Origin: Escherichia coli
GTDB taxonomy: Bacteria; Pseudomonadota; Gammaproteobacteria; Enterobacterales; Enterobacteriaceae
NCBI RefSeq assembly: GCF_036507355.1
Contig: NZ_AP027877.1
Direction: 5' to 3' (one strand)
Length of the DNA stretch: 64,000 nt
This document shows, in pieces, positions 42,534 to 44,514 of this stretch (the stretch's first letter is position 1; the number at the start of each line of letters is the position of its first letter). The translations under genes and the position numbers were made by a program. A model generated the notes under the pieces. The model ran no database searches and was not told the origin of the DNA. It saw only the letters and a program-made list of their open reading frames with translations.

Positions 42534-43427
42534 TTAATCCTGACGAAGGACTTTGTGACCATAATCGAGTAACGCATCAGTGACTTTACGCATCATGCGG
42601 CTTTCAGGAGCAAAGCGGTGCCAGTAGAGCATCCGTCGTTGAAATAGCCCAGGCGTTAAGTCAATCAGTTTACCGCTGGCCAGCTCTTTCTCGATTTGCA
42701 GGTGCGGGATCATACAGCAGGTGGTGCCCTGGCGAGCAAGTTGTACGAACGCTTCTGAAGAATTAACGATATGGCAGGGCACGCTGCCTGGAGGCAGATC
42801 GAAGTTTTGCTGCAAAAAGGCCTGGTGCATATCGTCAAGATGGTCAAACGCGACCACTGGCGCTTTCAGTAATGCCGAACGCGTTACGCCGTTAGGGAAA
42901 TATTTTTCGGCAAAGGGTTTTGAGCTGACGAACAGATAGTCGAGCGCACCAAGTTTATCGACAAGACAACTCGGCAGCGCCTGATGTTGAATACTCACCG
43001 CGCCGACCACTTCGCCGCGACGCAGACGTTCCTGAGTGCGGGTTTCATCTTCTACCTGCAAGTTGAGGCGGATAGGCGAATCAGCCAACACAGGAGCCAG
43101 TGCAGGAAGCAACCACGTCGCCAGACTGTCGGCGTTGACCGCCAGTGAAAGCAGCAGCGGAGTCGAACCGGTTTGTTCATCGCCCAGCCACTCTTCTTCC
43201 AGCAACTCCACCTGGCGCAGCAGTGCCAGCAGTTTTTGCCCTTGTTCCGTCGGGCGCGGCGGTACGGTACGCACCAACAGCGGCTGCCCGAACATATTTT
43301 CCAGTTGCTTAATGCGCTGTGAGACGGCTGATTGTGTAATGCACAGCTTTTGTGCCGCGCGCTCAAATCCTCGTTCACGTATCACCGCATCCAGTGCCTG
43401 TAATGTTCTGTAGTCCGGGCGTTTCAT
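42534..43427 (-). CDS. argP: LysR-type regulator ArgP (IciA)
   Basis: ORF 42534-43493; start at ATG 43427 gives the 297-aa product [48 protein letters not shown]... Confidence 0.92.
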
Positions 43428-43568
43428 TGCTGTTGTCTGCTCCTGGTAAATGCTTTTTCCTGCACTATGACACAATTTTGTGTCAGGTTGCATATACCGA
43501 AGCCGTCGGCGGGTAACATTTGTATTCGTGGTTAAACGCGCAGCTTAAAAGATCAGGGATTTGCGCTA

Positions 43569-43799
43569 ATGCATTTCGCTCAGCGAGTTCGCGCCCTGGT
43601 TGTGTTGAATGGCGTGGCGTTATTGCCTCAATTTGCCTGTAAACAGGGGCTTGCGAACGGTGAATTGGTGCGCCTGTTTGCACCGTGGAGCCGCATACCC
43701 AGACCATTGTATGCTTTATTTGCGGGGCGAAAGGGGATGCCCGCCATTGCGCGATATTTTATGGATGAGTTAACCACGCGGCTTGCCAACGGGGTCTGA
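43569..43799 (+). pseudogene. yqfE: LysR-family regulator remnant (C-terminal fragment only), yqfE-like
   Basis: 76-aa ORF MHFAQRVRALVVLNGVALLPQFACKQGLANGELVRLFAPWSRIPRPLYALFAGRKGMPAIARYF... resembles the C-terminus of a LysR substrate-binding domain; no HTH-bearing N-terminus. Confidence 0.55.
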
Positions 43800-43854
43800 A
43801 TCGCTTTTTTTGTATATAATGCGTGTGAAATTTCATACCACAGGCGAAACGATC

Positions 43855-44514
43855 ATGACGCAGGATGAATTGAAAAAAGCAGTAGGATGGGCGGCACTTC
43901 AGTATGTTCAGCCCGGCACCATTGTTGGTGTAGGTACAGGTTCCACCGCCGCACACTTTATTGACGCGCTCGGTACAATGAAAGGCCAGATTGAAGGGGC
44001 CGTTTCCAGTTCAGATGCTTCCACTGAAAAACTGAAAAGCCTCGGCATTCACGTTTTTGATCTCAACGAAGTCGACAGCCTTGGCATCTACGTTGATGGC
44101 GCAGATGAAATCAACGGCCACATGCAAATGATCAAAGGCGGCGGCGCGGCGCTGACCCGTGAAAAAATCATTGCTTCGGTTGCAGAAAAATTTATCTGTA
44201 TTGCAGACGCTTCCAAGCAGGTTGATATTCTGGGTAAATTCCCGCTGCCAGTAGAAGTTATCCCGATGGCACGTAGTGCAGTGGCGCGCCAGCTGGTGAA
44301 ACTGGGCGGTCGTCCGGAATACCGTCAGGGCGTGGTGACCGATAATGGCAACGTGATCCTCGACGTCCACGGCATGGAAATCCTTGACCCGATAGCGATG
44401 GAAAACGCCATAAATGCGATTCCTGGCGTGGTGACTGTTGGCTTGTTTGCTAACCGTGGCGCGGACGTTGCGCTGATTGGCACACCTGACGGTGTCAAAA
44501 CCATTGTGAAATGA
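43855..44514 (+). CDS. rpiA: ribose-5-phosphate isomerase A
   Basis: ORF 43783-44514; start at ATG 43855 gives the 219-aa product [53 protein letters not shown]... Confidence 0.95.

Follow-up and report, generated by a model that had tools for sequence, protein, structure and literature searches.

Between argP and rpiA, the window (the whole 64-kb stretch of DNA that was analysed) carries an ATG-to-TGA open reading frame (ORF) of 76 codons, placed exactly at 43569-43799 on the plus strand, and the locus raises the question of whether so short a frame is a gene in its own right or the end of a gene whose remainder has gone. A sequence-only reading had described it as a yqfE-like remnant rather than a functional regulator. 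The region of the window corresponds to scpA-argP-yqfE-rpiA-serA of E. coli; the ORF begins 138 nt from the argP start codon and ends 55 nt before rpiA. Its length is of little weight because chance ORFs of about 76 codons are numerous in the same stretch, according to the program-made ORF list, and the evidence lies in homology.

This homology is observed directly. In a Pfam search, ORF residues 15-72 matched positions 151-208 of the 209 in the LysR_substrate profile (PF03466; E 4.2e-7, 30 bits with a cut-off of 28), and no match to HTH_1 (PF00126) was found in the 76-codon ORF. A tblastn search of the 64-kb window with an intact 298-residue orthologue returned residues 236-298 at 43608-43796 (96.8% identity, E 3e-36). 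The LysR-derived part of the ORF amounts to its C-terminal 63-64 codons (43607-43796), equivalent to residues 235/236-298 of the 298-residue regulator, or its last ~21%. Six-frame tblastn, run with permissive settings on 43380-43900 and with standard settings on the whole window, found no other piece of the intact LysR gene. The earlier claims that a LysR substrate-binding domain is represented by its C-terminal end alone, and that the HTH-bearing N-terminus is missing, both hold, with no piece of residues 1-235 in the window. The suggested TBLASTN search with full-length LysR protein uncovered no degraded coding sequence upstream, and a full-length LysR homologue cannot be rebuilt from the adjacent sequence, residues 236-298 being all that the 64 kb contain.

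In the MG1655 record (NC_000913.3), the corresponding 231 nt, at 3059381-3059611 on the minus strand, are annotated as yqfE, b2915, and carry a pseudogene flag. The copy in the window differs from K-12 yqfE by four nucleotides and one amino acid (G42R), and its G42R allele is rare: the stretch that contains the change, 43612-43692, is at least 99% identical to the window in only 80 genomes. What had been called yqfE-like is yqfE itself, identified by position and by its 231-nt length, and is in this sense already known and ordinary. In the searchable literature, yqfE or b2915 appears only as a list entry, with nothing on function. The pseudogene flag is found only in the curated K-12 record; the PGAP labels in the RefSeq E. 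coli genomes sampled were "LysR substrate-binding domain-containing protein", "type 2 periplasmic-binding domain-containing protein", "hypothetical protein", or no call.

With the 76-residue product as query, a close-homologue search matched only E. coli and Shigella fragments of 43-110 residues, and an exhaustive representative search with the ORF gave one full-length relative together with generic LTTR C-termini. The intact locus was found through a 92-residue variant (P0019), more LysR-like and with a different N-terminus, whose contig holds extra genes between argP and rpiA. In E. coli PapRG-06-5 (locus L005), the order is argP (minus strand), a 441-residue protein labelled "ferredoxin reductase family" (minus), an 86-residue DUF1471 protein (minus), a 209-residue FMN-dependent NADH-azoreductase (minus), the 298-residue LysR regulator (plus) and rpiA (plus), so that the intact arrangement of E. 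coli loci reads argP, FRD, DUF1471, azoR, LysR, rpiA, with azoR and LysR divergent. The L005 LysR stop codon lies 55 nt from rpiA, a distance equal to that in the window. Pfam searches placed HTH_1 at residues 4-63 and LysR_substrate at residues 88-294 of the intact regulator, assigned the azoreductase to Flavodoxin_2/FMN_red and the small protein to YdgH_BhsA-like, and found Ferric_reduct, FAD_binding_8 and NAD_binding_1 in the 441-residue protein, which is a NOX-like architecture. The regulator reached no equivalog cut-off in NCBIfam, where the nearest models were PRK14997, YafC and AaeR, and its nearest solved structures, 3t1b and 3szp, are deposited only as "Transcriptional regulator, LysR family".

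The island of ~3 kb between argP and rpiA is carried by 233 of 5,426 complete E. coli genomes, and 247 of the 5,426 have the 704-nt LysR segment that the window has lost, a share of about 4-5% in either case. All 12 E. coli copies of the LysR gene that were sampled are open over 298 codons (eight translated, four annotated as 897-nt CDSs). A separate observation concerns the island itself: the products of L005 2213-4506, a segment absent from the window, are a membrane flavocytochrome of NOX-like type, a DUF1471 protein resembling BhsA and a second azoreductase of the AzoR type, which together look like a redox-stress module under the LysR regulator. Within the island, the ferric-reductase gene has been split or has lost part of its length in several E. 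coli strains and Escherichia species.

The comparison with genomes holding an intact copy, which had been proposed alongside the remnant claim, thus found such copies in E. coli, and it also found them in other Escherichia, Pseudocitrobacter and Citrobacter. The LysR gene with at least part of the island occurs at the same locus in E. whittamii, Escherichia sp. E1V33 and Escherichia sp. MOD1-EC7003, the LysR gene being frameshifted in the last. A Pseudocitrobacter genome has the LysR gene between argP and rpiA without the azoreductase, Citrobacter portucalensis has the order argP, azoR, LysR, rpiA, and in Salmonella enterica the four genes of the module stand together elsewhere in the genome. 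The presence of the LysR gene and part of the island at the same locus in other taxa implies that the long form is ancestral and that the form in the window is a deletion.

Side-by-side alignment of the window with the intact loci resolved the interval between argP and rpiA into the following features, given by window position and strand.

42537-43430, minus strand: argP (iciA), the left neighbour, an intact and unrelated LysR-family regulator (tblastn, 99.7% identity to ArgP).
43431-43488, no strand: argP upstream region, homologous to island-carrying genomes (blastn, 93% to L005 2146-2203 and 95% to locus L006).
43489-43527, no strand: filler of 39 nt in the place of the ferric-reductase-like and DUF1471 genes of intact loci, with no significant match to any long-form island.
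43528-43606, minus strand: what is left of an FMN-dependent NADH-azoreductase paralog, namely ~26 codons from its 3' end (residues 182-207 of 209), without the former stop codon.
43606-43607, no strand: deletion junction between the azoR 3' remnant and LysR codon 235, seen in side-by-side sequences and equal to the loss of L005 3965-5310 (1,346 bp).
43607-43799, plus strand: LysR-derived remnant, from the third base of codon 235 to codon 298 and the stop, in the native frame (99% DNA identity to L005 5311-5503).
43569-43799, plus strand: annotated ORF yqfE, chimeric, in which the first 12 codons, ATG included, are antisense azoR, the next spans the junction and the last 63 are LysR.
43800-43854, plus strand: 55-nt spacer to rpiA, of the same length as in intact loci, holding TTTTTGTATATAAT, with TATAAT at 43815-43820.
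43855-44514, plus strand: rpiA, the right neighbour of the scar.

The junction at 43606|43607 is directly visible in these alignments, and a comparison of the breakpoint sequences showed no microhomology. To its left, the azoreductase remnant was recovered by tblastn at 43605-43528 (77% protein identity, E 1e-8 against the whole window), and its DNA is 88-91% identical by blastn to the azoR 3' ends of intact loci. To its right, the frame opened by the ATG at 43569 coincides with the native LysR frame, 43607 being the third base of codon 235. The ATG sits in a palindromic ATGCAT that reads Asn-Ala on the azoreductase strand and occurs in intact azoR genes too; 9 nt before the ATG there is an AGGGA. 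The remnant claim therefore stands as regards truncation and needs refinement as regards simple truncation, since the ATG and the first 12 codons of yqfE are the antisense strand of an azoreductase remnant.

DNA alignment to intact loci showed that the first 704 nt of the LysR gene were deleted and did not decay in place. An LTTR typically has its own promoter in a divergent intergenic region that it shares with its target operon. The corresponding azoR-LysR intergenic region (L005 4507-4606) falls within the 1,346-bp deletion, and the native LysR promoter region, ribosome-binding site and start codon are missing because they lie inside it. The 138 nt between the ORF and argP consist of argP upstream DNA, the 39-nt filler and the antisense remnant of the last 26 azoreductase codons; tblastn found no remnants of the ferric-reductase or DUF1471 genes. 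The filler (43489-43527) had no match by blastn at word size 7 against the E. coli, E. whittamii, E1V33, MOD1-EC7003, Pseudocitrobacter, Citrobacter and Salmonella loci. Scans of the region gave no Rfam families and no terminators.

Taken with the intact loci, this anatomy makes it very probable that yqfE is a non-functional relic left by deletion. The ancestral argP-rpiA interval would have held a four-gene module in which a LysR-type regulator (298 residues, plus strand) was divergent from an operon for an AzoR-like FMN azoreductase, a DUF1471/BhsA-like protein and a NOX-like ferric-reductase flavocytochrome. The lineage of the window lost about 3 kb. A 1,346-bp deletion cut ~540 nt from the 5' end of azoR and 704 nt from the start of the LysR gene, together with the divergent promoter region; the ferric-reductase and DUF1471 genes have gone as well, and the 39-nt filler stands in their place. 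By chance, the junction links an ATG on the antisense strand of the azoR remnant to LysR codons 235-298 in a single reading frame, yielding the 76-codon ORF. Its product would have neither wHTH nor linker helix and would be missing about three quarters of the effector-binding domain.

Because the DNA-binding part, most of the effector domain, the promoter, the ribosome-binding site and the start codon are gone, yqfE cannot act as a LysR regulator. The earlier view of a remnant rather than a functional regulator is upheld in this respect, the HTH, the complete effector domain and the gene's own promoter all being absent. As a protein, yqfE is most likely inactive, with a probable lack of expression or function.

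The junction and the left-hand remnant are identical in all short-form alleles that can be aligned across 43606|43607, and because they are common to all of these alleles, they point to a single origin of the deletion. A single deletion from a Citrobacter-like ancestor with the order argP, azoR, LysR, rpiA was considered and rejected, the DNA downstream of azoR in Citrobacter being unlike the filler of the window. In Citrobacter portucalensis, the DNA at and past the azoR end (L025 4214-4345) has its homologue in the 3' end of the ferric-reductase gene of E. coli, a resemblance that implies independent loss of the ferric-reductase and DUF1471 genes there.

Later decay of the scar is seen directly in the E. 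coli population. Positions 43400-43900 were matched in one piece in 5,157 genomes, and 43612-43692 is missing from 1,620 of the 5,426 complete genomes (~30%). In the alleles examined, this loss is due to an in-frame deletion of 45 bp (43629-43673), at a cost of 15 residues, and the lineages with it include O157:H7, O55:H7 and ST38. The O157:H7 allele combines this deletion with an ATG-to-TTG change and several private changes, and has no CDS called. Strain E09 has larger deletions within yqfE, and database variants include frameshifted forms, one of them a Shigella sonnei form on 375 contigs, as well as others fused to unrelated sequence. The gene is also dispensable, since the genome-reduced strain DGF-298 is viable with a 10.4-kb deletion that includes yqfE (PMC10652928).

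Two of these alleles show further peculiarities. In O157:H7 PNUSAE146743, the equivalent of 43500-43602 has seven private substitutions, including ATG-to-TTG, in ~100 nt of remnant-only DNA, a load far above that of every other allele sampled, for which a divergent import or a mutational cluster is possible. In strain E09, an insertion of ~126 nt between yqfE and rpiA carries an ERIC/IRU-like palindromic element, followed by a repeat copy of the TATAAT-containing stretch that precedes rpiA.

The pattern of substitutions in the ORF could be read differently. Pairwise dN/dS over the LysR-derived codons of six short-form alleles was 0.13, with 0.12 for the full length of intact genes and 0.09 for the same codons in them. 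Across 14 short-form alleles, 21 of 193 nt were segregating, distributed 15:4:2 over third, first and second codon positions, and this synonymous bias, on its own, suggests a resemblance to purifying selection on the ORF. Many of the variants are nevertheless not private to the remnant: at least 9 of the 21 also occur in 12 sampled intact E. coli alleles, and when four further intact alleles were added, one more "private" variant dropped out. Over its full 193 nt, the remnant in K-12 does not differ from the intact gene of O157:H16 Santai, the CFT073-type remnant matches the intact allele of TUM13936, and the remnant of the window/EC1515 type is 1-2 nt from the intact alleles of A16, ES5 and ECNB21-M121. 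Variants outside the sampled intact alleles number ~4 non-synonymous against ~9 synonymous, which are small counts, and some residual constraint on the ORF may be present.

Remnant-only DNA to the left of the junction cannot take variation from intact genes and serves as a neutral reference. It had 13 segregating sites in 118 nt, or 6-7 when the atypical O157:H7 allele was set aside. The density of third-position variants in the LysR-derived remnant (15/64, 23%) is 2-4 times that of this DNA (5-11%), whereas the density at first and second positions together (6/128, 4.7%) is about the same. Recombination is favoured over selection because of the shared variants and haplotypes, the third-position excess and the neutral density at first and second positions; exchange with intact alleles would plausibly account for the synonymous bias and explain most of the pattern, in counts that are small. 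Deleted alleles and the intact alleles L005-L036 were also seen to have lineage-specific haplotypes in common over 43607-43799, which implies repeated recombination between short and long forms right up to the junction. The comparable diversity on the remnant-only side further suggests an early date for the deletion in relation to the diversification of E. coli.

Against this background, other readings of the scar can be weighed. The chimeric ORF might be expressed and selectively kept as a 76-residue micro-protein, for example one that interferes with other LysR-type regulators through its C-terminal dimerisation surface, a scenario that we regard as very improbable. The skew of polymorphism towards synonymous and third-position sites would fit it, as would an ORF that is open in most genomes and the weak Shine-Dalgarno-like AGGGA upstream of the ATG, but much of the synonymous excess is common to intact alleles, at least 15 ORF residues are missing in ~30% of genomes, where the 45-bp deletion takes 15 of the 63-64 LysR residues, the ATG is lost in O157:H7, and frameshifted forms are common in Shigella sonnei. 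By analogy with LTTR structures generally, the strands and helices of the fragment would pack onto parts of the domain that are missing, making it unlikely to fold alone; the native promoter is deleted, and no function has been reported in the searchable literature. Equally improbable is the specific proposal that an antisense azoreductase ATG, fused in frame to the last 64 LysR codons, gave an ORF that would be translated and held under purifying selection as a small protein, with the synonymous excess as its mark; were it true, yqfE would be a natural gene-fragment micro-protein born from a deletion scar. A regulator split or rearranged so that its HTH-bearing part is encoded nearby has practically no probability, and nothing was found in its favour. 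It is refuted by the tblastn search of the 64-kb window with the intact 298-residue protein, which recovered residues 236-298 alone, and the 138 nt between the ORF and the argP start codon are all other remnants.

The DNA of the relic could instead be kept for cis-regulation, as upstream or spacer sequence for the rpiA and argP promoters, so that only deletions stopping short of these survive. We consider this unlikely, with a much better chance than a micro-protein; it is compatible with the pseudogene reading, and the scar may persist in this way between the argP and rpiA control regions. On the rpiA side, the spacing of 55 nt from the LysR stop codon and the TTTTTGTATATAAT block are invariant in alignments of intact and deleted loci from three genera, Escherichia, Citrobacter and Pseudocitrobacter, and the last 21 nt of the remnant have no variant among the 14 short-form alleles aligned. 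A variant count for the spacer 43800-43854 was left out, as it was an alignment artefact from one truncated locus. The TATAAT at 43815-43820 is likely the -10 element of the rpiA promoter; a consensus promoter scan of the region reported none by its -35 criteria, which counts against the cis-regulatory reading. The 45-bp and larger deletions within the remnant, tolerated in many lineages, also weigh against it and imply that at most the extreme 3' end of the remnant can matter. On the argP side, the left breakpoint falls 58 nt upstream of the argP ATG, just past a palindrome, as would be expected if deletions stop short of a control region.

This palindrome, TGACACAATTTTGTGTCA, is a perfect 18-bp repeat at 43468-43485, 38-55 nt upstream of the argP start codon. 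It stands at the edge of homology with island-bearing genomes and is imperfect there (TGACATAATTTTGCGTTG in L005), and it could be an argP operator or promoter element that differs between deleted and intact loci. Control of argP by PhoB is disputed by ChIP-seq (PMC10294691). The yqfE_argP intergenic region of K-12 (window 43431-43568) scored 0.64 in InvenireSRNA, a computational machine-learning screen (PMC8144298), which placed it in its top 16 of CsrB/C-like candidates; no Rfam match was found in the yqfE-argP intergenic region.

The reading of yqfE as a deletion relic adds to the existing record where intact copies are found, exactly where the junction lies, how the chimeric ORF came by its start codon and how often the scar has decayed further; these points are useful for annotation and unsurprising. 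The mapping gives the scar a concrete origin, reveals an accessory redox-type module lost by most E. coli, and identifies strains with the intact regulator for study, such as PapRG-06-5 and PCN033. The locus may also serve as a worked example of how a chimeric ORF can arise by deletion and borrow its start codon, and of how recombination with intact alleles can make the polymorphism of a pseudogene look constrained.

Among known systems, the closest is yqfE b2915 of MG1655, which has the same locus, argP-yqfE-rpiA-serA, and the same 231-nt ORF, with no difference of substance. The pseudogene assignment agrees with this position and identity, with a full-length orthologue at the locus, and with a missing part that is absent rather than diverged. 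The intact orthologue (WP_000568126.1, PapRG-06-5, 298 residues) is 96.8% identical over its residues 236-298 to residues 14-76 of the window ORF, and its stop codon and 55-nt spacing to rpiA are as in the window; it differs in having HTH_1 and the full LysR_substrate domain and in facing a divergent azoR-DUF1471-ferric-reductase operon, which the window does not have. Related copies of this orthologue occur in E. whittamii, Citrobacter portucalensis and Salmonella enterica. Compared with LTTRs generally, yqfE is homologous to the C-terminal end of the effector-binding domain and, unlike them, is without the wHTH, the linker helix and ~150 of the ~209 effector-domain positions. Homology is thus the one LTTR feature that it retains, the HTH, the complete effector domain and its own promoter being lacking, and despite that homology yqfE is not a functional member of the LTTR family.
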